Source: a candidate division WOR-3 bacterium (GTDB lineage: Bacteria > Hydrothermota > Tepidihabitantia > Tepidihabitantales > Tepidihabitantaceae). From it: a stretch of 64,000 nt of DNA. The notes under the pieces are model-generated. The model was not told where the DNA came from. It did not search any database and saw only the letters and a list, made by a program, of their open reading frames with translations. Shown here piece after piece: positions 13,449-38,321 of the stretch. The stretch covers positions 2,146 through 66,145 of the forward strand of contig JBDRUN010000003.1 in NCBI GenBank assembly GCA_039801365.1, in the 5' to 3' direction. The stretch's first letter is position 1. Every line of letters begins with the position of its first letter. The translations under genes were made by a program, and so were the position numbers.

Positions 13449-13497
13449 CGCACGCACAATTACGTCGCGGCCGGGACTTTTCAGTCCCGGTCGCTAC
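13444..13497. terminator. Bidirectional terminator between convergent rpsG and pgeF
   Basis: Nested hairpin GGTAGCG..(CCGGGACT-tttc-AGTCCCGG)..CGCTACC read directly; sits between two convergent stop codons. Confidence 0.5.
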
Positions 13498-14360
13498 CAT
13501 TTTGCACGCCGCAGGACGATTACGGCAAGGTTGCGGCCAGCAGTGCCGTCACGGCGGACCGAGTAGAAGTGCTCCGGGTTCTCTTTGGTGCAGAGGTCGA
13601 GCGAGCCGGCCTCGACGAGGCCCAACCCCGTGAGCAGGCTGCGGTTGGCGGAGCGGAGGTCGAGGTGGAAGCGAAAATGGTTCCAGGGTCCCAGGGTTCT
13701 AGGGTTCAAGGGGTCGAACCGTTGGCTTTCCGATACCTCCTGTTGTTCCGCTGGACGGAGGAAACGGTCGGCCGAGGGGAACTGTTGGCGAAACTCGGCG
13801 GCGACATCCTCACCTACAACGTAGCAGTCAGCGCAGATGCAGGGGCCGAGGGCGAAGTGCAGACGCGGTAGCGGAACCGAGAATCGTTCGGACATCTGTT
13901 GTGCGAGTTTCTCGGCAAGTCTGGTGGCGGTGCCCCGCCATCCGCAGTGGGCAAGGCCGACTACAGGTGGTTTGCATGACCAGATATACACCGGCAGGCA
14001 GTCCGCAACCTTGATGCCGAGTCCGATGCCGGGTAAATCGCTGAAGGCTGCGTCAGCCTCCTGTTGCTTTTCCTGCTTGTCCGGTTCGGCGAAGAATACC
14101 ACCCGTGCAGAGTGAATCTGGTTCATTGTGAAGAGTGTAGTGATGCCAAGGGCGTGCCTGACCCGACGCAGATTTTCTCTGACCGCGTGCTCTTCATCGC
14201 CAACCTGCAGGGACAGGTTCAGAGAATCGTAAGGGCCGCGCGAGACACCGCCCTTGCGGGTAGTGAAGGCTATCACAAAGCCAGGAGCGGGTTGAGACTC
14301 GTAGTATTCTATTCCATTCGCCAGGTGGATTCGCCAGTTCGCCGGAACGCAACCAGGCAT
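13494..14360 (-). CDS. pgeF: YfiH/PgeF-family protein (DUF152, laccase-domain / peptidoglycan editing factor) carrying an in-frame octamer-repeat insertion
   Basis: FTTRKGGVS..SLNLS, HAVRENL, VADCLPV, GLAHCGWRG, and C-terminal RRDG.AGRNL motifs typical of COG1496; 288 aa versus about 250 typical. Confidence 0.7.
   Translation of the reverse strand: MPGCVPANWRIHLANGIEYYESQPAPGFVIAFTTRKGGVSRGPYDSLNLSLQVGDEEHAVRENLRRVRHALGITTLFTMNQIHSARVVFFAEPDKQEKQQEADAAFSDLPGIGLGIKVADCLPVYIWSCKPPVVGLAHCGWRGTATRLAEKLAQQMSERFSVPLPRLHFALGPCICADCYVVGEDVAAEFRQQFPSADRFLRPAEQQEVSESQRFDPLNPRTLGPWNHFRFHLDLRSANRSLLTGLGLVEAGSLDLCTKENPEHFYSVRRDGTAGRNLAVIVLRRAKW
13681..13720. repeat. Octamer tandem array (TTCNAGGG, 5 copies) in-frame inside pgeF, encoding DPLNPRTLGPWNHF
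   Basis: Direct reading: ttccaggg tcccaggg ttctaggg ttcaaggg gtcgaacc. Confidence 0.8.
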
Positions 14361-16220: not shown

Positions 16221-18347
16221 CTATAACTGTTGTCTTGGTGCCAGGTGGGCTTCGACCTTTTCGAGCGAGGACCGGGCCGCGTCGTGATTCGGGTCAATAC
16301 GAATAGCCTGGGACAATGCGGCTCGAGCCGGTTCAAGGCTATCCATCGAGACGTACACCAGGCCGAGCAGGTAATAGTTTTCGGCGTTCAGCGGGTCGAG
16401 CTCGACCGCAGCCTTGTAGTGCCGGATGGCAAGTGCAAAATCGCGGCGAGCGATAGCGAGGCGGCCGCCGGCCAGCTCGGCCAGCACGCGGTTGCGCGGG
16501 TCGGTGCCGACTACCTTGGCCAACTCCCGGTACTCGGCTTCTGCCTCCTTGGTTCGGCCCAGTCCGGCATAGGCGACAAACAGTCCGTACCGGGCCACCG
16601 GGTTGGCCGGATTCGCGTCAATGGCCCGGCGGAATGCGTCGAATGCTCGGCTGCTTCCCATCGTCATGTAAGTATTTCCGGCCTGGGTCCAGGCTTGAGC
16701 AGTGTACGTTCGGCGGTCAACCGGGATGAGACCGGACCCGGCGTACAAGATGATGGCGGCGGCAGAGATAACAGCCGACCTCATCCATTTCCCTTGCCTT
16801 ATGGCTGAAACCGTCTCGGCCACGGCATACCCGGCGAACATCAGGAAGAACGGAATCACCGGCGCGCGCAGGCGGGAAAGAACGTAGAAAACGAGAGAAG
16901 ATACGAGGAAGGCGAGAATGAAGAATAGGGGATAGAGGGCCAGAGGGACAGAAGGATGAGGTCCGGCACTTGAACCCTGGAACCCCTGAACTCTGGAACC
17001 GTTCCTGCTTAGTGCTAGGAAGACACCGACCAAGCCCAAGGCTGCAATCAGGCCGAAATTCAGAAACGCAACTTTGAGCGCAACCGAGTAGGGCCAGGCA
17101 GTTTCCGGGTAGTAGTTGCTAGGAACTTCGTAATTGGACCAGAACAGGAGAAACTTGCGGGAAAGCAGCCACAGGCTCCGACCCGGGGTACGGACGACGA
17201 ATTCCAGACCTTTCCTTGTCCAGTATGCGGAGGCTTGAGACCAGGAAAGCTCCCTGCCGTCTATCATCCGGCTGATGCGCTTGAGCTGCTGATGCGAGAA
17301 GCCGGCAGTACGCTCCAGCTCGGTCTGCTGCCAGGTGCCGTCGGTCCATGGATTCCAGCCGTAGTAGAAGTTGATGCCCGAATGCGCGGTGAACAGCACC
17401 GGTTCGCGGGCAACGATGAGATTCCGAATCGGCACCACGGCGATTGTGGCCAGCGCGCAGGCGGTCATGGTGATGATAGCTCGCAGTCGTGTCGGAGCCC
17501 CCCTTCCTTTCGTTCCCTCCCCCTTGAAGGGGGAGGAAGAGGGTGAAGGTGGGCTTGCGTTCGAGCGTACTTCGAGCTGCGGTGCGGTGCGTTGTGCGGT
17601 CTGCACCCTGCGGCCTGCGCCCAGTGTGCGCCACAGGACGATGACGAACGCCGGAAGCAGGATTAGCATCTCCGGCCGGCAGATGACCAGAAGGCCAAAC
17701 GATATCCCGGCAATAGCCCAGCGCCATGACCCCCTCCCTTTCATTCCCTCCCCCTTCAAGGGGGAGGGAGAGGGTGAAGGTGGTTTCTGTCCTTTTCCTT
17801 CCTTCCCTTCTTTCTTGAAGGGAGAGGCAAGGGGTGAGGGTGAGGTTACACTCCACAGCACAAGCCACAGGGTCAGGAGTGAGAAGAACACCGTGACCTC
17901 GACATAGAGCAGAGCGCCGGTGTAGAACACGATAATGCCGGTCAGGGCGAACCCGAACGCAGCGAACAGGGCACTGGTGCGGCCAAAGATACGCCGGGTC
18001 GAGTCGTAGAGCAGGAAGCAGGAGACTGCAGCGAGGAAGCACTGGAACAACTGCACCGGGAACACCTTTGGGCCGAATATGGCATACAGCCCGGCGAGCA
18101 TGTAGGGATATAGCGGCCGCAGGAAGAAGACTTCGTTGCCCCATAAGCTCTTGTGCACGATGTCCAGGGCCCAGGTGTGGTAGTACCAGGAGTCAATCAC
18201 CTGGGCTGAGATGACCGAAAATGGATGGCCACGCATCTCCAGAATGAACCACAGCCGGATGGCGAACGTCAACACAACCGCCAGCGCGGGTAGTATCGTT
18301 GTGGTCAATGGTCGGCGGTCAGCGGTCGGCGGTCGGCGTTGCGCCAT
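16221..18347 (-). CDS. GT-C fold membrane glycosyltransferase (ArnT/PMT-like) with C-terminal TPR repeats; contains in-frame repeat insertions
   Basis: About 10 N-terminal TM helices in a pattern like dolichyl-phosphate-mannose / 4-amino-arabinose transferases; C-terminal TPR motifs (AWTQAGNTYMTMGSSRAFDAFRRAIDANP, AEAEYRELAKVV, YKAAVELDPLNAENYYLLGLVY). Confidence 0.7.
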   Translation of the reverse strand: MAQRRPPTADRRPLTTTILPALAVVLTFAIRLWFILEMRGHPFSVISAQVIDSWYYHTWALDIVHKSLWGNEVFFLRPLYPYMLAGLYAIFGPKVFPVQLFQCFLAAVSCFLLYDSTRRIFGRTSALFAAFGFALTGIIVFYTGALLYVEVTVFFSLLTLWLVLWSVTSPSPLASPFKKEGKEGKGQKPPSPSPSPLKGEGMKGRGSWRWAIAGISFGLLVICRPEMLILLPAFVIVLWRTLGAGRRVQTAQRTAPQLEVRSNASPPSPSSSPFKGEGTKGRGAPTRLRAIITMTACALATIAVVPIRNLIVAREPVLFTAHSGINFYYGWNPWTDGTWQQTELERTAGFSHQQLKRISRMIDGRELSWSQASAYWTRKGLEFVVRTPGRSLWLLSRKFLLFWSNYEVPSNYYPETAWPYSVALKVAFLNFGLIAALGLVGVFLALSRNGSRVQGFQGSSAGPHPSVPLALYPLFFILAFLVSSLVFYVLSRLRAPVIPFFLMFAGYAVAETVSAIRQGKWMRSAVISAAAIILYAGSGLIPVDRRTYTAQAWTQAGNTYMTMGSSRAFDAFRRAIDANPANPVARYGLFVAYAGLGRTKEAEAEYRELAKVVGTDPRNRVLAELAGGRLAIARRDFALAIRHYKAAVELDPLNAENYYLLGLVYVSMDSLEPARAALSQAIRIDPNHDAARSSLEKVEAHLAPRQQL
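16972..17006. repeat. Octamer tandem array (GGGTTCNA family, reverse orientation) in-frame inside the GT-C/TPR gene, encoding NGSRVQGFQGSS
   Basis: tgaaccc tggaaccc ctgaactc tggaaccg read directly. Confidence 0.75.
17497..17552. repeat. Imperfect palindromic element about 54 nt, copy 1 (CCCCTTCCTTTCGTTCCCTCCCCCTT-GAAGGGGGAGGAAGAGGGTGAAGGTGG), in-frame in the GT-C/TPR gene
   Basis: Arms are near reverse complements; length is a multiple of 3; encodes a Ser/Pro/Gly/Lys-rich loop (SPPSPSSSPFKGEGTKGRG). Confidence 0.75.
17730..17782. repeat. Imperfect palindromic element about 54 nt, copy 2
   Basis: CCCCCTCCCTTTCATTCCCTCCCCCTTCAAGGGGGAGGGAGAGGGTGAAGGTGG; 85-90% identical to copy 1. Confidence 0.75.
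17788..17846. repeat. Imperfect palindromic element, degenerate copy 3, immediately adjacent to copy 2
   Basis: CCTTTTCCTTCCTTCCCTTCTTTCTTGAAGGGAGAGGCAAGGGGTGAGGGTGAGG; same architecture. Confidence 0.6.
18310..18338. repeat. Heptamer tandem array (GGTCGGC/GGTCAGC, 4 copies) at the 5' end of the GT-C/TPR gene
   Basis: ggtcggc ggtcagc ggtcggc ggtcggc read directly; encodes RRPPTADRRPLTT at the protein N-terminus. Confidence 0.7.
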
Positions 18348-21914: not shown

Positions 21915-22438
21915 AGTGGAGGCGGGTCTATAAGCCGGGTTCTGTACCCGGACTTCGTCCGAATCCTCCGAAAGGAATAAGGAATACCTCATTCCTGATT
22001 TCGGAGCCCGGCAGAAGCCGGGCGACGGTCATTTATCTGTGCCTGCGGTTGCCCGCAGGCCTCAAGCGACCTACCCGGGACTCGAGCGGACCGGGCCAGT
22101 CCTTGTCCCGATTTGGTCTTGCACCAGGCAGGGTTTGCCCATTCCAGATGTCGCCACCCGGAATAGTGCGCTCTTACCGCACTTTTTCACCCTTACTCTG
22201 CGAGACCCTTCGCTTACGCTCAGGGCAGACCGCAGAGCGGTCTGGTTTCTGTGGCACTTTCCGTCCACGGGCCGTTTCTGACCCGCAGCCTTGCCGTTAG
22301 CAAGTGCCTTGCCCTTTGGTGCCCGGACTTTCCTCTACAGGAGAGAGTTCAAGGGGTCCAGGGTTCAAGGGTTCCAGTGAGGAACACCGAACCGGACTTC
22401 CAAGACCCGGTCCTGCAGCGACCGTCCGACCCGCCTCC
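21915..22438 (-). ncRNA. rnpB: RNase P RNA (bacterial type A) with an octamer-repeat insertion in P3 and an extra 3'-proximal hairpin
   Basis: On the minus strand: P1 GGAGGCGGGTC...GACCCGCCTCC; universal P4 GAGGAAAGTCCGGGC and ACAGAACCCGGCTTAT; ACAGAAAC; AAGGGTGAAAAAGTGCGGTAAGAGCGCAC (P10-P12); GCAAGACCAAATCGGGACAAGG; all in canonical order. About 520 nt because of insertions. Overlapping ORF-track ORFs 21576-22512 are spurious. Confidence 0.8.
22345..22378. repeat. Octamer tandem array (GGGTTCNA family) inside the RNase P RNA gene, in the P3 region
   Basis: gagttcaa ggggtcca gggttcaa gggttcca read directly; lies between P1/P2 and the GGAAAGTCCGGGC P4 strand. Confidence 0.75.
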
Positions 22439-26607: not shown

Positions 26608-27738
26608 GTGAATAGCAGGATAGTCCTCGCCATCGGCGGTAATTCCCTTATACGGGCCAAGGACAAGCAGTCTTTTTCGGACCAGCTTGCTGCAGTTGGT
26701 GACACCTGCCACCAGGTTGCCGACTTGGTCGAGGCCGGGCATGAGGTCGTCATTACCCACGGCAACGGGCCACAGGTCGGCTTCCTTCTCATTCGGTCGC
26801 ACTTGTCACGGAACCGGCTGCCGGAGACTCCACTCGATGCCGCGAATGCTCAGACCCAGGCGGAAATCGGGTACATGATTCAGCAGGCGCTCGGCAACGA
26901 GCTGAGCCGGCGGGGACTGTATCAAACCCAGAAAGCCAAGAGCCAAGGGTCAGGAGTAGAAGCTCAAAGTCCAGCCAGAGTGAATGGCGTTGTGACAGTT
27001 GTGACACAGGTGGTGGTTGACCCGAATGACCCGGCGTTTCAGAATCCGTCCAAGCCGGTCGGGCCGTTCTATACCAAGGCTGAGGCCGCGGCTCTGCAGA
27101 GAGAACTGGGCTGGACAATGCGTGAGGACGCAGGTCGCGGGTTTCGGAGATTCGTGCCGTCGCCCCGGCCAGTGGAGATTGTAGAGCTGCCGGAGATTAG
27201 GCGGTTGCTGGAGTCAGGGTTCGTGGTAATCGCCTGCGGTGGAGGAGGGATTCCGGTTGTGAGTGAGCGGACAACTCAGAGCTCAGTAGTCAGGAGTCAG
27301 AACGCAGAGTGCGGAAAACCGGAGTCGGAAGGCTGGCGGCAGGTGATGGATAGTAGGCTGTTGCGGGGAGTAGCAGCGGTGATTGATAAGGATTTGGCAT
27401 CGAGCCTACTCGCGCGGGAACTCGGCGCTGACATATTCGTGATTTCCACCGCGGTGGAGCAGGTGTATCTGGATTACGGTAAGCCAAACCAGCGGCCGCT
27501 CGGTAGCGTCAAAGCAAAAGAGATGCGGGAATACCTCTTGGCCGGTCAGTTTCCAGATGGTAGCATGGGGCCGAAGGTTGAGGCGGCCCTTTCCTTTCTG
27601 GGGCTAGATGAATTCAGGACGCAGGAAGCAGAACGCAGAATGCAGGAGCTGGGAGCGGAGCGGCAGGTTATTATCACCGACCCGGAACATATAGTGGCCG
27701 CACTGCGGGGAGAAGCGGGAACGAGAATTACAGCATGA
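26608..27738 (+). CDS. arcC: Carbamate kinase with three in-frame low-complexity insertions
   Basis: IVLAIGGNSL...HGNGPQVG...VVIACGGGGIPVV...IDKDLASSLLARELGADIFVISTAVEQVYLDYGKPNQRPLG...GSMGPKVEAA are carbamate kinase signatures; 376 aa versus about 310 typical. Confidence 0.8.
   Translation: MNSRIVLAIGGNSLIRAKDKQSFSDQLAAVGDTCHQVADLVEAGHEVVITHGNGPQVGFLLIRSHLSRNRLPETPLDAANAQTQAEIGYMIQQALGNELSRRGLYQTQKAKSQGSGVEAQSPARVNGVVTVVTQVVVDPNDPAFQNPSKPVGPFYTKAEAAALQRELGWTMREDAGRGFRRFVPSPRPVEIVELPEIRRLLESGFVVIACGGGGIPVVSERTTQSSVVRSQNAECGKPESEGWRQVMDSRLLRGVAAVIDKDLASSLLARELGADIFVISTAVEQVYLDYGKPNQRPLGSVKAKEMREYLLAGQFPDGSMGPKVEAALSFLGLDEFRTQEAERRMQELGAERQVIITDPEHIVAALRGEAGTRITA
26931..26985. repeat. arcC insertion 1 (GCAGAGT-family repeat DNA; encodes KAKSQGSGVEAQSPARV)
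   Basis: CAGGAGTAGAAGCTCAAAGTCCAG related to CAGGAGTCAGAACGCAGAGTGC (insert 2) and CAGGAAGCAGAACGCAGAATGC (insert 3). Confidence 0.6.
27270..27330. repeat. arcC insertion 2 (encodes TTQSSVVRSQNAECGKPESEG)
   Basis: Same motif family; falls between conserved carbamate kinase blocks. Confidence 0.6.
27606..27665. repeat. arcC insertion 3 (encodes EFRTQEAERRMQELGAER)
   Basis: Same motif family. Confidence 0.6.
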
Positions 27739-29090
27739 AGGGTTCAAGGGTTCGAGGGTTCAAGGGGCCGAGTGAGCAGACCGGACGATGCCAGATACCA
27801 GATAACAGATTGCAGATTGCAGAGTCCAGACCACGGAACTCAGGATTGTGCGTCCTGGCGTTCTTGGTGGTTGTTTCATCAATCTTCGCTCAGCCGGCGA
27901 TGGTGCTTATTCCGATGGACCTGACGCAGGCCGACCATCTGAAGGCGTACGGCATCGTGTATCGGCTGTTGCAGCGGGGGCAGAGAGCGGAGTGGCTTCT
28001 GAACTATCGGGGCGGTTCGTTCCTCTTGCCGGTTGAGGCTCAGGCAATGAAAGAGTGTCGGCTTGAAGGGGTGGTCTATCAGTCGGTGTCCGCGGCCGAC
28101 CTGGTACAGATCAGGCAGACTATTGATCAGAACAACATGGAGTCAGTTATGCTGGAGCGGCCAACGAGGCTGGCGGTGTACGTTCCACCCACCGCTGACC
28201 CGTGGGACGATGCGGTTCGGCTGGCCCTGGACTATGCCGGCATTCCGTACGACAAGGTCTGGGATGAGGAGGTGCTGGCCGGTAAGCTTTCCCAGTACGA
28301 CTGGCTGCATCTGCATCACGAGGATTTCACCGGCCAGTACGGCAAGTTCTATGCTTCGTACCATAACGCAGACTGGTACCAGGCCGAAGTGGCGCTGAAT
28401 ACGAAAATGGCGCGTAAGCTCGGATTCTCCAAAGTCAGCAAACTGAAGCTTGCGATTGTCGGGATGGTGCGGCAGTATGTCGCGGATGGCGGGATGCTGT
28501 TTGCAATGTGTTCGGCCACAGACACGCCGGATATTGCCTGGGCGGCACAGAATACGGATATCTGTAATCAGGTTTTCGATGGCGACGGCGTTGATCCGGC
28601 GTATCGCTCAAAGCTCGACTACAGTGGTTGTCTGGCATTCGAGAACTTTGAGCTAGTTACCGACCCAATGGTGTATGAGCACTCAGACATTGACACCTAT
28701 CTTGAGGCGACTGCCCGCGGGCCGGATACATACTTCGCACTGTTTGACTTCTCGGCCAAGTTTGACCCGGTGCCGACGATGCTGGTTCAGAACCACGTAG
28801 GGCTGGTCAAGGAGTTTCTCGGCCAGAACTGCGGGTTTCGCCGGGAGCGGCTGAAAAAGAGCACGCTCATTATGGGTGAGGTCAAGAATACCGAGGAGGT
28901 GAAGTACATTCACGGTAACTTCGGCAAGGGGACTTGGACTTTTCTCGGTGGCCACGACCCTGAGGACTACGCCCACCGCATCGGCGACCCAGTGACCGAC
29001 CTTTCCTTGCACAAGAACTCGCCTGGGTACAGGCTGATACTGAATAACGTGCTGTTTCCCGCGGCGGAGAAGAAAAAGCTGAAGACGTGA
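27735..29090 (+). CDS. Hypothetical secreted protein (possible ThuA/DUF4159-like amidotransferase-like fold); 5' end built from tandem repeats
   Basis: Long ORF with a conserved-looking core (LAVYVPPTADPWDDAVRLALDYAGIPYD, MLFAMCSATD); its first about 35 codons are the GGGTTCNA and CAGATTG arrays, so the true start is probably near 27846 (hydrophobic signal LCVLAFLVVVSSIFA). Confidence 0.45.
   Translation: MKGSRVRGFKGPSEQTGRCQIPDNRLQIAESRPRNSGLCVLAFLVVVSSIFAQPAMVLIPMDLTQADHLKAYGIVYRLLQRGQRAEWLLNYRGGSFLLPVEAQAMKECRLEGVVYQSVSAADLVQIRQTIDQNNMESVMLERPTRLAVYVPPTADPWDDAVRLALDYAGIPYDKVWDEEVLAGKLSQYDWLHLHHEDFTGQYGKFYASYHNADWYQAEVALNTKMARKLGFSKVSKLKLAIVGMVRQYVADGGMLFAMCSATDTPDIAWAAQNTDICNQVFDGDGVDPAYRSKLDYSGCLAFENFELVTDPMVYEHSDIDTYLEATARGPDTYFALFDFSAKFDPVPTMLVQNHVGLVKEFLGQNCGFRRERLKKSTLIMGEVKNTEEVKYIHGNFGKGTWTFLGGHDPEDYAHRIGDPVTDLSLHKNSPGYRLILNNVLFPAAEKKKLKT
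27739..27767. repeat. Octamer tandem array (GGGTTCAA GGGTTCGA GGGTTCAA) spanning the arcC stop
   Basis: Direct reading. Confidence 0.8.
27791..27832. repeat. Heptamer tandem array (CCAGATA CCAGATAA CAGATTG CAGATTG CAGAGTC CAGACC)
   Basis: Direct reading. Confidence 0.8.
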
Positions 29091-29096
29091 GAGCAA

Positions 29097-29136
29097 AGGG
29101 TTCAAGGCTTCCAGCGTTCCAGGGTTCGAGGGTGAG
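29097..29136. repeat. Octamer array (GGGTTCAA GGCTTCCA GCGTTCCA GGGTTCGA GGGTGAGG), left flank of four-helix-bundle gene 1
   Basis: Direct reading. Confidence 0.8.
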
Positions 29137-29163
29137 GATTTCGGGCGCGGAGACGGGCGGAGG

Positions 29164-29541
29164 ATGCTGAGGAACTACAAGGAGTTGACTGCATGGCAGC
29201 GGGCGTACGGGCTTTGTCTGGAGGTTTATCGCCTTACTGCCGAGTTTCCAAAGGAGGAGAAGTATGGGCTTGTATCTCAGATTCGGCGGGCCGCCGTGTC
29301 GGTTCCATCCAACATTGCCGAGGGATACGGCAGAAGAACCACGGGTGAGTATCTCCAGTCTCTGCATGTTGCGTACGCTTCTCTGTGCGAGCTCGAGACG
29401 CAAGTTCTCCTTGTTTCGGACCTGGGGTTCCTGAAATTGGAGCCGTCGCGGAAACTGAAGGAAGACGTTGGTGATGTCGAGCGGTTGCTCAAGGCGCTCA
29501 TCAGGTCATTGGAGCAGAAGCGTTCTGCTCCTGAACACTAG
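29164..29541 (+). CDS. Four-helix-bundle protein (TIGR02436 / 23S rRNA intervening-sequence protein family, PF05635; same family as DGR Avd)
   Basis: YKELTAWQRAYGLCLEVYRLTAEFPKEEKYGLVSQIRRAAVSVPSNIAEGYGR...SLCELETQVLL is the characteristic family sequence. Confidence 0.8.
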   Translation: MLRNYKELTAWQRAYGLCLEVYRLTAEFPKEEKYGLVSQIRRAAVSVPSNIAEGYGRRTTGEYLQSLHVAYASLCELETQVLLVSDLGFLKLEPSRKLKEDVGDVERLLKALIRSLEQKRSAPEH

Positions 29542-29572
29542 AACCCTTGAACCCTAGAATCCTGGAACCCTG
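29541..29572. repeat. Octamer array in inverted orientation (GAACCCTT GAACCCTA GAATCCTG GAACCCTG), right flank of four-helix-bundle gene 1
   Basis: Reverse complement of the GGGTTCNA family; starts in the gene's stop codon. Confidence 0.8.
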
Positions 29573-29580
29573 TCTCTGAT

Positions 29581-29847
29581 ATGTGCCTGGCCATACCGGT
29601 AAGAATTACCGAGCTTCGCGGCGATATGGCGGTCGGTGAAGTAGGCGGCATCGAGCGCGAGATTTCCGTGCTGATGACGCCGGATGTGAGAGTCGGTGAT
29701 TATGTCATAGTTCACGCCGGGTTTGCACTGCAGATTGTGGACCAGGAAGAGGCGAAGGAGAACCTCAGGATTCTTTCCGAGATGGCTCAGGTCACCGAGA
29801 AGGTTCGGCAGAAGGCGCGGCGGACTAGGCCTAACCGGACTGGGTGA
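29581..29847 (+). CDS. hypC: Hydrogenase maturation factor HypC/HupF
   Basis: Invariant MC(L/I)A(I/V)P N-terminus (MCLAIPVRI) and length of 88 aa. Confidence 0.85.
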   Translation: MCLAIPVRITELRGDMAVGEVGGIEREISVLMTPDVRVGDYVIVHAGFALQIVDQEEAKENLRILSEMAQVTEKVRQKARRTRPNRTG

Positions 29848-30252: not shown

Positions 30253-32205
30253 TTAGGGGGCAATCTTAGTCTGAATCAGGAGTGCCGCAGTGGCGACTGC
30301 CAGCGATACGGCGGTGACAACAATGCCGACACGGAACCATTCGCCGAACTTGACGTGTTGTCCAGTCGTGCGCTCGAAGGCGCCAACTGCAACAAGGTTG
30401 GCGGTCGAGCCGATGACAGTCAGGTTGCCGCCGAAACAGCCGCCGAACAAGAGCGCCCACCAGAGAATCGAGGCGTGAGGGATATTGATGCCGGCCGGAC
30501 CCATGTCCCGGGCGATGGGCACAAGCGCGGCCACGATTGGCAGATTGTCTACAAAGCCGGACAAGAGGCTGCTTGCCCAGAGCATCAGAACCGACGCCGA
30601 CCCGGCAACGCCGACCCGTCCTCCAAGGGCCGCGCTGATGTTACCGGACAGGGTGTGCAGCAGGTAGCCGAGTTTGGTGGTTACCCCGGTGTACTCAAGG
30701 CAGGCGGCATTGGCGAACAGGAACATGAAGAAGAGCAGGGTCCACCAGTCAATGCCCCGCTCGATGAGTAGCTTGCCGCGTTCCTGTTCGTGGAAGACGA
30801 TGAACCCGGTGACCATCAGCGCGACCGCAACTAGCGCGGTACCGTCACCAAGGCCGAGTAGTACTTCGATGCGGCGGTGCAGGGCGATCATCACTACTGT
30901 GACGGCAAAAGTGATGATGCCAGTGCGTAGTTTCGCAGGGTCCACAATGCCGATCGACTGCTCCAATTCTCTGGCGTCGAATTCGTAGCGTCGGCCGAAG
31001 AAGTGTTTGCGGAACAGAAGAAGACAGAGCAGGGCGACGATAACTGCGGCGAGGGCGGAAACCGGAGTGGCCCAGCGCAGGAAGTCTTCGAACGTCAGGT
31101 TGCCGGCAAAGGCGATGTACACGCCGATGGGGTTGCCGACAAGGGTGAGGGCGCTGCCGACGTTGGTGGCGAATACCAGACTGAGCAGGTAGGGTACGAG
31201 TGGAGCCTTGGTGCGGCGGGACACCTCCAGGGCCAGGCCGAAGGTCACAAGGATTGCCGATACCTCGTCGGCGAACCCGCCCATCAGGACCGAGAACCCC
31301 ATCAGGATGAGCAGGAGCAACCAGGGAATGCCCTTGACCTGTTCGACCGCTTTGACAACCACGAAGCGGAACACGCCGATGTTTTCTAGCCAGCGGACGA
31401 TGACCATCATCGCCATTATGAACAGGATGGTTGGGATGGACATGAAGTCCACAGTGGTCTCTAGGTTCATTACGCCCGCCACCAACAGGACCCCGAGGCT
31501 GGCTGCGGCAATGGCCACGCGGAATCGCCAGAATAGGAGCGTGCCAAGAACCATTGCGACGAATAGCGCAACGGTGAGTTCCTGCCGCGCGAGCCAGGGC
31601 TGCATGTTGAACTTCAGATATTCCGGTGCGGCGTAGAATCCGACGTTGGGAAGCCGAATCAGAGGCAAGGTCAGTCGAGCTGCGACGTAGGCTGCGGCGA
31701 CCACGAGCAGAAATACTAGCATCCTGCGGTTGCGACGGATGAAAGACTGGTGGGGAGGCGAGGACACGATTTCAGCTACGCGCACCGGGTTGGTGGTACG
31801 GAGTGCTGCGGCACGAATCTCGGATTGGTTCAACGAGCGGGCGAGTTCAGCGAGAATCTCCAAGTAGAGTTTCCGTTCATCGGTCGGGCCAACGATGACG
31901 AAGGCCGTGCGCACCGGCTCACGGTCGGCTGCAGCCCAGTCCAAAGGCGTGGAAAGGCGGACGGTTGCTACTGCTGCCGAACTAGCCGAAGGCACAAGGG
32001 CGTGTGGCAGGGCGATGCCGTTGCCTACGCCGGTCGAGCCGAGTTGCTCACGGGCGAGGAGTTCGCGGACCAGGGCTTCGCGGTCGGTGATGATGCCATT
32101 CTCGTAGAGCCGGTCGGCCACGAGCCGGAAGAGCTGCTCCTGCGTGCAACCCTCAGGGCAGGTCAGGGCCAGCTCGGGCCGGACAAAAGTCTCCAGCCTA
32201 ATCAT
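30253..32205 (-). CDS. Fusion protein: N-terminal PTS EIIA(Ntr)-type domain plus C-terminal ArsB/NhaD-superfamily (CitMHS-like) anion permease
   Basis: N-terminus EQLGSTGVGNGIALPHAL (EIIA-type-2 phosphorylation-site region) followed by about 12 TM helices with ArsB/NhaD permease-like composition. Confidence 0.7.
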   Translation of the reverse strand: MIRLETFVRPELALTCPEGCTQEQLFRLVADRLYENGIITDREALVRELLAREQLGSTGVGNGIALPHALVPSASSAAVATVRLSTPLDWAAADREPVRTAFVIVGPTDERKLYLEILAELARSLNQSEIRAAALRTTNPVRVAEIVSSPPHQSFIRRNRRMLVFLLVVAAAYVAARLTLPLIRLPNVGFYAAPEYLKFNMQPWLARQELTVALFVAMVLGTLLFWRFRVAIAAASLGVLLVAGVMNLETTVDFMSIPTILFIMAMMVIVRWLENIGVFRFVVVKAVEQVKGIPWLLLLILMGFSVLMGGFADEVSAILVTFGLALEVSRRTKAPLVPYLLSLVFATNVGSALTLVGNPIGVYIAFAGNLTFEDFLRWATPVSALAAVIVALLCLLLFRKHFFGRRYEFDARELEQSIGIVDPAKLRTGIITFAVTVVMIALHRRIEVLLGLGDGTALVAVALMVTGFIVFHEQERGKLLIERGIDWWTLLFFMFLFANAACLEYTGVTTKLGYLLHTLSGNISAALGGRVGVAGSASVLMLWASSLLSGFVDNLPIVAALVPIARDMGPAGINIPHASILWWALLFGGCFGGNLTVIGSTANLVAVGAFERTTGQHVKFGEWFRVGIVVTAVSLAVATAALLIQTKIAP

Positions 32206-33388
32206 AAGTACCGTAGAAACGTTGGATGAGCAGAATTATACGTTCTTGCTCAGCTTCGGTCAAAGTCGGACGAATCGGTAGGTTGATGATTTCAAGGGAC
32301 GTCTGCTCGGCCACCGGGCAAGGCTGGCGGTGGTAGAGGCCGGATTGCAGATTACAGATTGCAGAGATTCCGGTCTCTGGTACCTGGCAATTGGCTTCCG
32401 GTAATGCGTGGCGCTCAAGTGCTGGCTCAAGATATACCGGCCGCTCATAGTAGCATCCGGTTTCGACTCCGTGCTTCGACAGGTAGTCGCGCAGCTTGTC
32501 CCGCTCCGGAACAAGGATGGCGTACTGGTGGTAGTTGGAAACGCAGTCCCGGTGTCCCCGGACAAGCCGCGCGACGCCGGCGAGCGCTTCGTCATACCGT
32601 GCGGCGAGCACGCGTCGCCGGGTATTCTCGGCATCAAGCCGGGCCAGTCCCAGGCGGAGCACCGCAGCCTGGATTTCGTCAAGCTGAGAGTTGTAGCCGG
32701 TCCGTATGTGTTGACCCTGTTCGTCTCTGCCGTGACGTCTCAGTTGGCCAATGGTGCGGGCTAGGGCCGGGTCCGAGGTTGCGACCGCACCGCCATCACC
32801 AAGTGCGGCAAGGTTCTTGGTGGGGTAGAAACTGAACGTGCCGGCGTTACCAAAGCTTCCGAGTTTTCTGCCCTGCCAGATCGAGCCGATCGCCTGCGAG
32901 GCGTCTTCAATCAGGGCAAGGCCGTGCTTCGCGCACAGCTCGACGAATTCCGAAACCTCTCCGCAATGGCCGAACAGATGAACCAGCAAGACTGCCTTCG
33001 TCCTTGGCGTGATAGTCGACTCGCAAGCCGCGGGGTCAAGACAGAGCGTACCAGATTCGATGTCAGCGAATACCGGAGTCGCACCCACACGAATTATTGC
33101 CTCGACTGTGGCGAAGAAGGTGAACGGTGTAGTGATGACTTCATCGCCCGGGCCGATGCCGAGTGCGTCAAGAGTCAGGACCAAAGCGTCGGTGCCGCTC
33201 TTGACCCCGAGCACGTGGCTTGCGCCCAGATAGCAGCCGAGTTCCTGCTCAAACGCGGCCAGTTCCGGCCCGGCTACAAACCGGCCGCTGGTAATGATTC
33301 GGTTCAGGATGCGAGCGTATTCATCCGCAACACACCTGGTGTTGCTTCGGATGTCATACAGCGGGATTGAGCTCGGCAAATCGGCCAA
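32198..33388 (-). CDS. DegT/DnrJ/EryC1/StrS-family PLP-dependent sugar aminotransferase
   Basis: [17 protein letters not shown], conserved Lys region ([18 protein letters not shown]), family length. Confidence 0.85.
32342..32371. repeat. Heptamer tandem array (GGATTGCA GATTACA GATTGCA GAGATTCC) inside the DegT gene
   Basis: Direct reading; same CAGATTG family as at 27791. Confidence 0.7.
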
Positions 33389-33457
33389 GATGATAGCTTA
33401 GTGCCATCAAGAGTCAAAGGCTTGACCCGGGATGGACCCATCCTAGAATCACCCTGC

Positions 33458-35494
33458 GTGGCCGACCACAGCCAGTTCAAACTCGTAGCTCCGTTCGAGC
33501 CGAGTGGGGACCAACCAGAAGCAATAGAACGACTGGTCGAGTTCATCCAGTCCGGGGCCAAGTATTCAACGCTTCTCGGTGTGACGGGTTCGGGCAAGAC
33601 CTTCACGATGGCGAATGTCATTGCCCGACTGAATCGGCCGACAATCGTCATTTCTCACAACAAAACCCTGGCCGCGCAGTTGTTCGGCGAGTTCCGTCAG
33701 TTCTTTCCGGAGAATGCGGTCGAGTACTTCATTTCCTACTACGATTATTACCAGCCTGAGGCGTATGTGCCGGAGCACGACCTGTACATCGAAAAGGATG
33801 CGTCAATCAACGAGGAAATCGAGCGACTCAGGCTGCGGGCTACCTCCAGTCTGCTGGAGCGCAGGGATGTGGTGGTGGTGGCCTCGGTTTCCTGCATCTA
33901 CAACCTGGGTGAGCCGTGGGAGTTCAGAGAGTCGGTGCTGCCGCTGGAGCAGGGCAAGGACCTGGACCGGGACGGGCTGATTGAGGAGCTGGTCAGACTC
34001 CAATACACACGGAACGATATGGAGTTGAAACGTTCGACGTTCCGAGTACGGGGCGACTTTGTGGACATTCATCCTTCACACCGGGACTACGGTCTGCGGG
34101 TGGAGTTCGACGGCAGTCAAATCAGCCGACTGACCGTGTTTGACATCGTGTCCGGGGACAACGTGGAGCAGAGGCAGCGGATGATAATCTATCCGGCCAA
34201 GCAGTTCGTCACTACTGAACGCCAGATAGAAGGCGCAATTGCCTCAATCGAACAGGAGTTGGCACAGCGGGTGAGCGAGCTTGAGTCGCAGAACAAGCTA
34301 CTTGAGGCGCAGCGGCTGGCGACCCGGACCAGGTTTGACATCGAGATGATGCGTGAGTTCGGGTACTGTCCTGGGATCGAGAACTACTCACGGCATCTGT
34401 TGGGCAAGAAACCGGGCGAGCGACCGTACTGCATGCTTGACTACTTCCCGGCCGACTACCTGATGATTATTGACGAGTCGCACGCGACAATCCCTCAGAT
34501 TCAGGGAATGTACAACGGTGACCGGGCGAGAAAGCAGACGCTTGTGGACTACGGGTTCAGGCTACCCTCGTGTCTGGATAACCGACCTTTGCGGTTCGAC
34601 GAGTTCCAGGCACTGGTAAGACAGGCAATTTTCACCTCAGCTACCCCAGGACCGTACGAGTTTGAGCACAGCCAGGGTCGTGTTGCAGAGCTGGTGGTGC
34701 GGCCAACCGGCCTTGTTGACCCGAAGATGACAATCAGGCCGACCAAGGGCCAAGTTGACCACCTGATTGGAGAGATTCGCAAGCGGGTAGAGAACCACGA
34801 GCGGACCCTGGTTACCACGTTGACCAAGCGGATGGCCGAGGACCTGGCTGAGTATCTGACTGAGATGGGGCTGAAGGTGCGCTACATGCACTCGGAGATT
34901 GACGCCATCGAGCGGGTGGAAATCCTGCGCGGGCTCAGGCTAGGTGAGTTCGACGTGCTCGTGGGGATCAACCTGCTGCGGGAGGGGCTGGACCTGCCGG
35001 AAGTGTCGCTTGTGGCGATCCTTGATGCGGACAAAGAGGGATTCCTGCGGGATGAACGTTCGCTGATTCAGACTGCGGGCCGGGCAGCGAGAAACGTGAG
35101 GGGAGAGGTGATCCTTTACGCGGACAACATCACGCGGTCAATCAGGATGGCGCTGAAGGAGACAGAACGCAGGCGGCAGAAGCAGATTGAGTACAACCTT
35201 AGGCACGGTATCGAACCGCGCTCGATACAGAAGTCAGTGGACCAGGTGCGGCTGACAACCTCGGTGGCGGACGCGAAGCCGGAGGAGCCAATAGCCAATA
35301 GCCAATGGCCAATGGCGGAGGAGGAGGACAGGATTGCGGCGCTGGACAGATTGCAGAAGGAGATGAAAGAAGCGGCGCAGAGACTGGAGTTCGAGAAGGC
35401 CGCAGAGTACCGGGACCGGATTACCCGGCTGCGCCAGCAGATTGACGACGAAGAGTGGAAGCGGGGCCGCCGCAAGCGGCTCAAGAAACGCTGA
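33458..35494 (+). CDS. uvrB: Excinuclease ABC subunit B
   Basis: [17 protein letters not shown], Walker A GVTGSGKT, helicase motifs, C-terminal UVR domain ([17 protein letters not shown]); GTG start proposed at 33458 (ORF opens at 33401); carries an in-frame CCAATAG heptamer array. Confidence 0.9.
35288..35315. repeat. Heptamer tandem array (CCAATAG CCAATAG CCAATGG CCAATGG) in-frame in uvrB, encoding [10 protein letters not shown]
   Basis: Direct reading. Confidence 0.8.
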
Positions 35495-36519: not shown

Positions 36520-36936
36520 TTGTTCCGGATTGGGGTAGCTATGGCGATAATCGAACAGAGAATAAGGTTGGTCGGGTCGAAGGGCAGCAGGGATGTGGTG
36601 GCGCTGTTTGACAGCGGCGCAAGCTATTCAATCATTCAGCCCGGTCTTGCCCGTGAGGTTGCGCGTCCAGAGCGGTTGCCCACCCCCAAGCATTTCGGAA
36701 CCGCGGAGAAGGGGCGCAAGGTTACCGCGAAGGAGTGTGTCCGGCTCGACTTCAAGCTCAACGGCCACACGCTCAGCGACGAGTTCATGGTCGTTCCCGG
36801 CATCACGGAATCGGTCATCATCGGCGCGGCTACGATGCAGAAGTGGCGCATGAAACTCGACTTCGAGCACGACCGGGTAATAGTTGACCCGCGGGTTACG
36901 AAACTGAGACTGCTCAGGCTAGGCAATAGCCAATAG
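36520..36936 (+). CDS. Retropepsin-like (clan AA) aspartic protease
   Basis: Active-site ALFDSGASYSII (D-S/T-G-A), flap and C-terminal IIGAATM motif typical of bacterial retropepsin-like proteins. Confidence 0.75.
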   Translation: MFRIGVAMAIIEQRIRLVGSKGSRDVVALFDSGASYSIIQPGLAREVARPERLPTPKHFGTAEKGRKVTAKECVRLDFKLNGHTLSDEFMVVPGITESVIIGAATMQKWRMKLDFEHDRVIVDPRVTKLRLLRLGNSQ

Positions 36937-36950
36937 GCAATGGGCAATCG
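36919..36950. repeat. Heptamer array (GGCAATA GCCAATA GGCAATG GGCAATC) bridging the protease stop and the four-helix-bundle gene 2 start
   Basis: Direct reading; provides both the TAG stop and the ATG start. Confidence 0.75.
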
Positions 36951-37314
36951 CGTGCAGTCATACCGAGACCTTGAGGTCTGGAGGAAAGCGATTGACCTCG
37001 TTACTGAGACGTATCGGCTATCGCGCAGATTCCCGAAGGACGAAATCTACTCACTTACGAGCCAGATTCGCCGGGCAGCCACTTCGATTCCGGCCAACAT
37101 CGCTGAGGGGTGGGGCCGGAATATGACGAAGGAGTATGTCCAGTTCCTGCGGATTGCCCGGGGCTCTCTACACGAACTGGAGACGCACTTGGAAGTGTCT
37201 TGTAACCTCGATTACTTCGGGCCGACCGAGTTGGACGCTATGCTCGGTAGGACGCACGAAATCAACAAGATGCTCAACAGCTTGATACGAGCCATTGAAG
37301 CCAATGGGCATTAG
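36940..37314 (+). CDS. Four-helix-bundle protein (TIGR02436 / 23S rRNA IVS protein family), paralog 2
   Basis: SYRDLEVWRKAIDLVTETYRLSRRFPKDEIYSLTSQIRRAATSIPANIAEGWGR...SLHELETHL; about 45% identical to the 29164 paralog. Confidence 0.8.
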   Translation: MGNRVQSYRDLEVWRKAIDLVTETYRLSRRFPKDEIYSLTSQIRRAATSIPANIAEGWGRNMTKEYVQFLRIARGSLHELETHLEVSCNLDYFGPTELDAMLGRTHEINKMLNSLIRAIEANGH

Positions 37315-37460
37315 GCAATGGGCGTGGCACAGGAATTAGGCAATGGGCAACAGGCATTGTTAGGCAATGGCTATTGGCTATTGCCTTCCGGAGCGGCTCC
37401 TGCCTACTGGCTTTCCGCGCCGGTCATTGTCTGTCCTGCTATTGGCTCCTGCCTATTGGC
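37306..37460. repeat. Extended degenerate heptamer region (GGCAATGG / GCATTAG / CTATTGG units in both orientations), right flank of four-helix-bundle gene 2
   Basis: ccaatgg gcattag gcaatgg ... ttaggcaatgg ctattgg ctattgc ... ctattggctcctgcctattggctaattggctg. Confidence 0.6.
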
Positions 37461-37493: not shown

Positions 37494-37531
<38 letters not shown>

Positions 37532-37622
37532 ATCCAATCCTAACAAGCTAGAATTTCTTTGGAGTTGGCTGGCTGTATGCCCGTGTATCACGGCCTTCTA
37601 TCCATAAATGCAGGAGGTGAGT

Positions 37623-38321
37623 ATGAAATGGACAGCAGCAATTCTCGTATTGGCGGCGCTGACAGTGATGACGTCAAGCTGTGTGCGAAGGGTGTATGTC
37701 AACGAGCACCGCTTCACGATATCCGATGTCTCCGAAGGCGTTGCCAATGATATCGAACGCGAGCTCAAGGAGGGTGGTTACAGAGTTCGCACCGTTTCAG
37801 CGAACAAGAAGGGAGAGATACTCGGGAGGGAGGACATAGAGGACCGCACATTCGTCCTAGAGAGTGATGGCTACACCGACGAGGACGTCCGCAAGGTGAC
37901 TGCCATCGTGACAAACCCGAGAAGGAATGAGCCGATAGCGCTCCGATACACCGCCGTTCAGCAAGATTACGTCTCAGCCGCAGGCGCAGGAACGGCTTCT
38001 GTTGAGGTGAGCTTTGATCTAACCGAGAACGCGAGAGCATACTTCAAGGCAACTGGTCAGCCAGTCCAGATGCGGAGGCTTAGTGGGCAACAGACGGCGA
38101 CCTTCTCTTACAGACGTCAGAAAGGTGAAGAGTACGTGGACATCTATGTCGTACCCGAAGGTGCAGGGCCAGGCTACAAGCCGAGAACGTTTCACCGAAT
38201 CAGCCTGTCCTATCCTTATGCTGACAGGGTCTTGCCATGGGAGTCATGCTGGACAAGGTTCTGGAAGTGGGTAAGGTCTATCTTTGGGAGTCGACGGACC
38301 GAGGATAGGTCTGGAAGCTGA
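37623..38321 (+). CDS. Hypothetical lipoprotein
   Basis: MKWTAAILVLAALTVMTSSC lipobox-type signal after GGAGGTG RBS; no recognisable domain. Confidence 0.5.
   Translation: MKWTAAILVLAALTVMTSSCVRRVYVNEHRFTISDVSEGVANDIERELKEGGYRVRTVSANKKGEILGREDIEDRTFVLESDGYTDEDVRKVTAIVTNPRRNEPIALRYTAVQQDYVSAAGAGTASVEVSFDLTENARAYFKATGQPVQMRRLSGQQTATFSYRRQKGEEYVDIYVVPEGAGPGYKPRTFHRISLSYPYADRVLPWESCWTRFWKWVRSIFGSRRTEDRSGS

Follow-up and report, generated by a model that had tools for sequence, protein, structure and literature searches.

How a conserved enzyme comes to carry surplus peptide segments is the question raised by the carbamate kinase gene (arcC) of a candidate division WOR-3 bacterium. The gene lies in a stretch of 64,000 nucleotides (nt) (GenBank assembly GCA_039801365.1, contig JBDRUN010000003.1, positions 2,146 to 66,145), which was analyzed over its whole length and is here called the window. 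Its product has 376 amino acids (aa), compared with 310 to 317 aa in solved carbamate kinases (one has 332). The surplus falls into three blocks that are associated with degenerate tandem arrays of short units, arrays of two periods (7 and 8 nt) are enriched in the window, and some of their unit families are shared with inverted arrays that flank genes for 23S rRNA intervening-sequence (IVS) proteins. We consider it probable that a few families of tandem arrays and, separately, a 54-nt hairpin element colonize this WOR-3 genome, with selection filtering the copies that lie within genes. The positions of all features are collected in Table 1.

The extra segments of carbamate kinase

The initial annotation had described the protein as ~66 aa too long, with three insertions between conserved blocks. 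The three sites are real, and the excess was measured as 64 aa. In alignments of 23 and 86 sequences, each of the three blocks is flanked by invariant motifs, and the catalytic-type motifs GGN, HGNGPQVG, DKD, and GSMGPK are all intact. The modal length among the 120 best homologues, and the length of most WOR-3-type ones, is 312 aa, and most of the 120 have 307 to 316 aa. The match to the Pyrococcus furiosus carbamate kinase (PDB 1e19) is broken at three places in the window protein, leaving ~20 unmatched residues after residue 105, ~28 between residues 220 and 249, and ~20 after residue 332. Alignment to orthologues had been proposed as a check for ancestral linkers; all solved carbamate kinases and most homologues, including many from WOR-3, lack the three segments, which supports reading them as derived insertions of repeat DNA rather than as ancestral linkers.

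Insert 2 reads in register as TCAGAGC TCAGTAG TCAGGAG TCAGAAC GCAGAGT, and insert 3 reads as CAGGACG CAGGAAG CAGAACG CAGAATG CAGGAGC. All three insertions had initially been traced to one 22-nt motif family. That motif gives 3 matches at up to 3 mismatches, a number equalled by 5 of 100 shuffled sequences, and its copy 1 is only 63% identical to copy 2; it was rejected as the defining unit, and degenerate tandem arrays of 7- or 8-nt units describe the inserts better.

An AlphaFold model of the protein, built with the 86-sequence alignment, has a mean predicted local distance difference test score (pLDDT) of 80 and a predicted template modeling score (pTM) of 0.81, with a mostly confident core. 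Insert 1 is modeled as coil (pLDDT, ~52) between the helix of residues 76 to 101 and the strand of residues 127 to 131, insert 2 as coil (pLDDT, 38 to 49) at the turn of a beta-hairpin formed by strands 215 to 220 and 251 to 254, and insert 3 as a short helix (pLDDT, 64 to 72) between helix 320 to 331 and strand 353 to 357. On this model, the earlier proposal that the inserted peptides are surface loops holds for arcC, all three lying between elements of secondary structure, as coil or at low pLDDT.

The arcC loci of five relatives (L001 to L005) were fetched from independent assemblies, and their segments at the three sites differ in length and unit. L002 has a (CAGAAGC)-type array at site 2 and GCCGACR x3, exactly 21 nt, at site 3, while L003 has (CAGAAGG)n at site 2 and (CAGAAGN)n at site 3; (TCAGAAN)n is found at site 3 of L004 and (RCGAGGG)x5 at site 2 of L005. 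In L001, all three sites are filled with sequences that are no longer repetitive. The L001 region is array-poor: across 21 kb, Tandem Repeats Finder listed 2 short rows, and across 14 kb it listed none. L001 and a further locus, L007, belong to one metagenome-assembled genome (MAG; GCA_965649205.1), the UvrB of which is 88% identical to that of the window. Because this array-poor MAG keeps non-repetitive inserts in arcC and a decayed 7-nt phase at the position of the uvrB array, the comparison suggests that arrays stay homogeneous only in lineages with an active system.

In a neighbor-joining arcC tree, calculated with the insert columns removed and without bootstrapping, the sequences with inserts form at least two groups, each closest to sequences that have none, and carriers of the site-2 insert GEGQGTRDGGGRG are interspersed with 312-aa sequences. 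This tree suggests that a small number of old insertions have been turning over and that the same loop was hit independently at least once more.

Array families, reading frame, and other genes with arrays

Arrays were counted in the window at a threshold of at least 4 units and at least 71% self-identity, with expectations taken from Markov shuffles. Eleven arrays of period 7 were observed where 0.63 was expected, and seven of period 8 where 0 was expected; at a stricter threshold, periods 4 to 5 and 9 to 12 were at chance, and period 6 was represented by a single array. The arrays are made of 3.5 to 6 imperfect units of 7 or 8 nt (copy numbers of 2.1 to 4.9 in the repeat search), and matches within the intragenic ones range from 71% to 95%. 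No Rfam family matched the arrays of the window. A small number of unit families turn up repeatedly, at loci that are not linked and on either strand (Table 1), the GGGTTCAA family having G3 tracts and the CAGATTG and AGCCAAT families having none. TCAGRAG units, which go with CAGATTG, and GACA-type units form further families. Between 8 and 12 of about 20 arrays (at least 40%) lie inside clearly homologous genes, three of them in one enzyme. This share is below the ~90% roughly estimated from coding density, as purifying selection would produce. Among the long simple repeats of the window, just one is perfect, a (GACA)x9.5 tract at 37494 to 37531; it is non-coding, lies 77 nt upstream of the open reading frame (ORF) at 37608 to 38321 (no Pfam match), and is a candidate for length-variable promoter spacing.

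The initial annotation had noted that every insertion keeps the reading frame and had invoked either selection or an insertion mechanism biased to multiples of 3. The arrays inside genes measure 34, 28, 29, 33, 23, and 28 nt, and it is the whole insert that is a multiple of 3. The nine non-coding arrays measure 31, 37, 40, 29, 16, 28, 38, 27, and 23 nt, so that one is a multiple of 3 and eight are not. On the basis of the 7- and 8-nt units and these array lengths, the biased mechanism was rejected; selection is enough. Frame preservation thus looks like survivorship, because nothing but in-frame, stop-free inserts can be observed in intact essential genes.

Other conserved genes carry arrays as well. 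The octamer array of pgeF translates as RFDPLNPRTLGPWNH and lies in a loop with 8 aa more than its counterpart in the closest orthologue (L007) and ~20 to 25 aa more than those of solved YfiH/YlmD proteins, in line with the in-frame insertion first described. The gene with GT-C (PMT_2) and TPR domains carries two adjoining octamer arrays, a further heptamer array, and three 54-nt hairpin elements, which are read in frame as SPFKGEG/SPLKGEG-type peptides and fold as RNA (z, -2.4 and -3.1). A scan of the genome collection for relatives of this gene yielded one true orthologue only, the 70%-identical L007 gene. Compared with it, the window protein has 25 additional aa where two of the 54-nt elements lie and 17 just upstream of the third, which itself aligns to a possibly decayed copy in the orthologue; the two octamer arrays coincide with mixed indels. 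The insertions reported for this gene, both the arrays and the three palindromes, are present and coincide with these length differences. The insert in the DegT/DnrJ/EryC1 aminotransferase, which had been overlooked, is missing from the L005 homologue and from solved structures and corresponds to ~24 unmatched residues in the comparison with PDB 7b0d.

The case of uvrB is different from what had been proposed. A well-matched (AGCCAAT)x4 array is present in the flexible linker before the UVR domain, but the linker is identical in length to that of the L001 UvrB and within 2 aa of that of Bacillus caldotenax UvrB. An insertion was rejected for these reasons, and sequence comparison indicates an array inside the linker with no net insertion. 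The uvrB ORF as listed also has ~22 to 28 extra N-terminal codons (33401 to 33470, plus strand) relative to the orthologue and the solved UvrB, and its true start is probably located downstream of the listed one.

The gene after arcC (27735 to 29090) has an ATGA-coupled start, and its ~35 N-terminal codons are the two junction arrays, in frame. With the start as listed, which is a prediction, the N terminus reads MKGSRxRGxKG...RLQIAE and is located upstream of a signal-peptide-like segment. The two arrays are kept in position, unit, and frame in the window (27735 to 27845), L002 (11008 to 11100), and L004 (5134 to 5225).

Table 1. Positions of arrays, hairpins, and their host genes in the 64,000-nt window
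Feature	Position	Strand	Details
arcC, carbamate kinase, 376 aa	26608-27738	+	Pfam AA_kinase; PDB 1e19, E = 2.8e-76
arcC variable segment 1 (aa 104-127)	26917-26988	+	+20 aa; loose 7-nt array AGCCAAG AGCCAAG GGTCAGG ...
arcC insert 2 (aa 221-248)	27268-27351	+	+28 aa = 84 nt; heptamer array at 27271-27315
arcC insert 3 (aa 333-352)	27604-27663	+	+16 aa; heptamer array at 27610-27656
arcC/next-gene junction arrays	27738-27837	+	(AAGGGTTC)x3.6, then (CAGATNN)x6
Cassette 1, inverted octamer arrays	29095-29136 and 29528-29574	+	around 23S_rRNA_IVP gene (29164-29541); 87% complementary
Cassette 2, inverted AGGCAAT/AGCCAAT heptamer arrays	36917-36953 and 37360-37386	+	around second 23S_rRNA_IVP gene (36940-37314); 91% complementary
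GGGTTCAA family, six loci	13675, 16972, 22343, 27738, 29095, 29528		
CAGATTG-type family	27782, 32336		
AGCCAAT/AGGCAAT family, at least five loci	35286, 36917, 37299, 37365, 37434		
Octamer array in pgeF (13494-14360), aa 214-229	13675-13718	-	GGGTTCAA family
GT-C/TPR gene	16221-18347	-	PMT_2 plus TPR
Two adjoining octamer arrays in GT-C/TPR gene, aa ~450-473	16929-17000	-	GGGACAGA and GAACCCTG, the latter of the GGGTTCAA family
Three 54-nt hairpin elements in GT-C/TPR gene	17499-17552, 17730-17783, 17790-17843	-	23-nt arms, 100% complementary
Further heptamer array in GT-C/TPR gene	17595-17622	-	
In-frame insert in DegT/DnrJ/EryC1 aminotransferase (32198-33388)	32309-32371	-	21 aa (63 nt); CAGATTG array at 32336-32368
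(AGCCAAT)x4 array in uvrB (33401-35494)	35278-35324, array 35286-35313	+	linker before UVR domain; 95% matches
RNase P RNA, class A	21915-22437	-	Rfam, 260.9 bits
66-nt extension of RNase P RNA helix P3	22335-22420	-	paired octamer arrays; includes array 22343-22380

Inverted arrays around IVS-protein genes and in RNase P RNA

Inverted array pairs flank both IVS-protein genes of the window. The two genes belong to PF05635, a four-helix-bundle family (E = 5.9e-35 and 1.9e-39), and in each cassette the arms form the outer stem of the minimum-energy fold; next to cassette 2, the arrays go on to 37538. Both cassettes sit between protein-coding genes, and no rRNA gene is present in the window. The arm family of cassette 1 is also found inside pgeF and the GT-C/TPR gene and that of cassette 2 in uvrB. 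No further IVS-protein gene was found beyond these two in the window, and none was found in L001 to L004 or L007. Directly upstream of cassette 2, a small ORF (36520 to 36936, plus strand) gives weak matches to retroviral-type aspartyl proteases (best E value, 5.9e-6).

The slot between the gene that follows arcC and hypC was found in different states. It holds a full cassette in the window (29090 to 29581), L005 (3243 to 3710), and L006 (3626 to 4093) and is empty in L001 (12384 to 12399) and L002 (12357 to 12374), where an 8- to 16-nt spacer is present. In L003 (2905 to 3010), inverted (AGRGATCR)x4 arrays form a hairpin there that encloses no gene and resembles a non-autonomous derivative.

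The association of such arms with IVS-protein genes extends beyond this organism. A metagenome scan with an alignment of the IVS protein gave 80 loci, 74 of them with both flanks, and at 58 of the 74 the inverted arms scored above all shuffles, the arms being themselves tandem arrays (median length, 30.5 nt). Their period was 8 at 36 loci, 7 at 21, and 4 at 1, and their units vary by lineage. A control with the same geometry displaced by 700 nt gave arms at 0 of 114 positions. The 106 ORFs neighboring the loci fell into 100 clusters, meaning that nearly all genomic contexts are different. On named plasmids, the IVS protein is found mostly in Nostocales, and inverted heptamer arms were present at 5 of 8 plasmid loci (Nostoc punctiforme, Trichormus variabilis, Calothrix, Anabaena sp. 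90, and Azospirillum); among the exceptions, two Nostoc PCC 7120 plasmids have a downstream array only and Gemmatirosa has direct arrays. TCAGRAG arms occur on the Nostoc and Trichormus plasmids, and the N. punctiforme arm (TCAGGAG/TCAGAAG) has the 16-mer AGTCAGGAGTCAGAAC in common with arcC insert 2.

Paired arrays also extend the RNase P RNA of the window, in which the P3 loop has 66 nt where 6 are usual. The P3 insert folds as a hairpin (z = -4.2); the second insert, ~62 nt long and close to the 3' end, forms an AAGGAAT hairpin (z = -4.1). The position of the ORF-less paired arrays of P3 at the tip of a helix parallels the location of the 23S IVS in rRNA helices.

Origin of the intragenic arrays

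Dispersed heptamer repeats have been known for decades, and the STRR repeats of cyanobacteria are dispersed short tandem repeats of the heptamer type. The heptamers GGGAATC of Xanthomonas and GGGGAYT of Nostoc occur as ~4 units and in convergent pairs, and in Xanthomonas 89% to 93% of the repeats are intergenic (PMC4692102). The arrays described here are similar to them in having a 7-nt unit, ~4 units per site, many loci on both strands, two inverted pairs in the window, and positions conserved between related species. However, the share of arrays within genes is far from that seen in Xanthomonas, octamers are as common as heptamers, and there are several families that are not G-rich; the link to IVS-protein genes is a feature of the window that was not reported for the Xanthomonas and Nostoc heptamers. 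Set against the known heptamers, the window thus stands out by the high share of its arrays that sit inside housekeeping genes, by units of 8 nt, and by the association with cassettes.

The cassettes themselves have a counterpart in the Coxiella IVS, in which an S23p ORF is accompanied by a 28-bp stem of terminal inverted repeats that is cut by RNase III and by tandem GACAGAT heptamers in a strain-dependent copy number; the element is viewed as selfish and possibly mobile, and the S23p structure that has been solved is from Xanthomonas campestris (PMC4990558). As in the 23S IVSs of Coxiella and Leptospira (PMC4990558), the window cassettes have a PF05635 ORF between complementary stem-forming termini with adjoining tandem heptamers. 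Unlike those IVSs, which are located in helix 25 or 45, both lie between protein genes, and their arms consist of tandem arrays over the full length. In the searchable literature, we found no paper linking S23p or four-helix-bundle genes to dispersed heptamer repeats apart from the one on the Coxiella IVS, and none on tandem repeats of WOR-3.

Repeat DNA read as extra peptide recalls the Rickettsia palindromic elements (RPEs), described as selfish repeats that lie in frame in unrelated conserved genes (Ogata et al. 2000, as summarized in PMC10969869). In both cases, the placement appears to be compatible with fold and function. The 54-nt hairpins of the GT-C/TPR gene behave like RPEs in being palindromic and in frame, with the additional 25 aa relative to the orthologue where two of them lie. 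RPEs are palindromes of ~100 to 150 bp that belong to defined Rickettsia families, whereas most of the window inserts are direct arrays of 28 to 56 nt with 7- or 8-nt units, and those in arcC, pgeF, the DegT aminotransferase, and uvrB contain no palindrome. RPEs are also dispersed in many copies, while the exact 54-nt core was found twice in the window, in one gene, and in none of the 88 fetched loci. The host differs as well, this WOR-3 bacterium being free-living, and no sequence relation to RPEs is expected. Tandem units that are not multiples of 3 in coding sequence are shared with the phase-variable loci of Haemophilus and Neisseria (PMC2651432), although such contingency loci have long, perfect, frame-switching tracts in surface or restriction-modification genes and the window arrays are short, imperfect, and located in housekeeping enzymes.

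In the reading that we favor, inverted array pairs form the arms around four-helix-bundle IVS-protein genes, and single arrays reside in spacers and genes. Arrays would enter genes, or be copied from arrays of the same family, regardless of reading frame, and the survivors in essential genes would be those with a total length divisible by 3, no in-frame stop codon, and a tolerant loop or linker as the site. Once arrived, they would be eroded by point mutations or be remodeled through slippage or conversion, which would account for the different lengths and units that related lineages show at the three arcC sites and for the non-repetitive inserts, similar in length, that an array-poor relative retains. 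Several observations weigh against this account. The arcC arrays are degenerate (71% to 80% matches), and insert 1 shows hardly any periodicity. No inverted partner was found within 600 nt of the single arrays in protein genes, and their folding did not exceed that of shuffled sequences (z, -1.4 to +0.7); what connects them to the paired cassette arms is shared unit sequence. No cassette with CAGATTG/TCAGRAG arms is present in the window, which leaves the source of the arcC arrays unseen. Target-site duplications were not recognizable at the arcC insert borders, which cannot be defined in relatives whose proteins are at least 26% diverged. Arrival from elsewhere rather than local growth is what we infer, and the inserted peptides may be neutral passengers. 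The uvrB array, with its unchanged linker length, fits conversion or evolution in place better than simple insertion.

The last point is one of those that favor local slippage, by which unconstrained loops and linkers would expand in place and the arrays would be home-grown rather than a dispersed family. The arcC arrays are heterogeneous and have no close match elsewhere in the window, different units occupy the same arcC site across lineages, the uvrB orthologue has its decayed 7-nt phase, and slippage of the polymerase has been invoked to explain why heptameric repeats are in excess in bacteria (PMC4692102). Nevertheless, slippage by itself is unlikely to be the whole explanation. It accounts for the turnover and for uvrB but not for the restriction to periods 7 and 8 or for the shared families: units recur at unlinked positions on both strands (the GGGTTCAA family at six, AGCCAAT at at least five, and CAGATTG at two), and they reappear in distant genomes, such as at the L002 and L004 junctions and in the arms of the Nostoc and Trichormus plasmids with AGTCAGGAGTCAGAAC. 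Conserved sequences at the empty arcC sites also offer no obvious seed.

That the arrays are kept for a function, as new surface loops, as RNA or DNA signals (G-quadruplexes or RNase III sites), or as hypermutable switches, seems to us improbable, even if the junction arrays conserved in three lineages, the good folding of paired arrays, and the persistence of inserts in the array-poor relative after repeat decay would be expected of functional elements. Four-unit GGGTTCAA arrays also provide four G-tracts, and similar heptamers form quadruplexes in vitro (PMC4692102). However, most homologues work without the inserts, the inserted peptides vary in length and sequence among relatives, and their predicted order is low. 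Single arrays in protein genes fold like shuffled sequences, and the imperfect tracts in housekeeping genes are unlike contingency loci. Even more remote is the explanation by artefact or decay, that is, a misassembled metagenome bin or pseudogenes. The window does come from a MAG, and repeats are known to cause assembly errors; sequencing artefacts had also been raised as a concern at the outset. Yet the ORFs are unbroken and retain every invariant motif, the modeled core structure is mostly confident, and independent assemblies from other samples and projects have arrays at the same arcC sites, which excludes an assembly artefact there.

The cassette arms may have been the source of the intragenic arrays. 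We regard their derivation from IVS-protein cassettes as a lead rather than as an established result. In its widest form, which we put forward as a tentative and rather doubtful proposal, the intragenic arrays would represent lone cassette arms or derivatives consisting of arrays only, the cassette being a widespread, mobile, and so far undescribed IVS-protein element that leaves behind gene-less hairpins and single arrays and lands in rRNA helices (as the classical IVS), RNase P RNA, spacers, and protein loops. No published explanation for dispersed heptamer repeats was found in the searchable literature.

For the proteins concerned, the inserts amount to a natural map of tolerance, in which loops of carbamate kinase, the DegT aminotransferase, PgeF, and the GT-C glycosyltransferase accept 8 to 28 residues and different relatives serve as independent trials. 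They also call for caution in annotation, since length outliers and low-complexity peptides in uncultured phyla can be in-frame repeat DNA rather than new domains. The tight association of 7- and 8-nt arrays with IVS-protein genes across phyla suggests a concrete source for dispersed heptamers and would connect rRNA intervening sequences, the extension of an RNase P RNA helix, and insertions in protein loops. If the mobile-cassette proposal is true, the heptamer repeats of cyanobacteria (STRR), Xanthomonas, and others would have a common origin, and a natural generator of protein loop insertions would have been identified.

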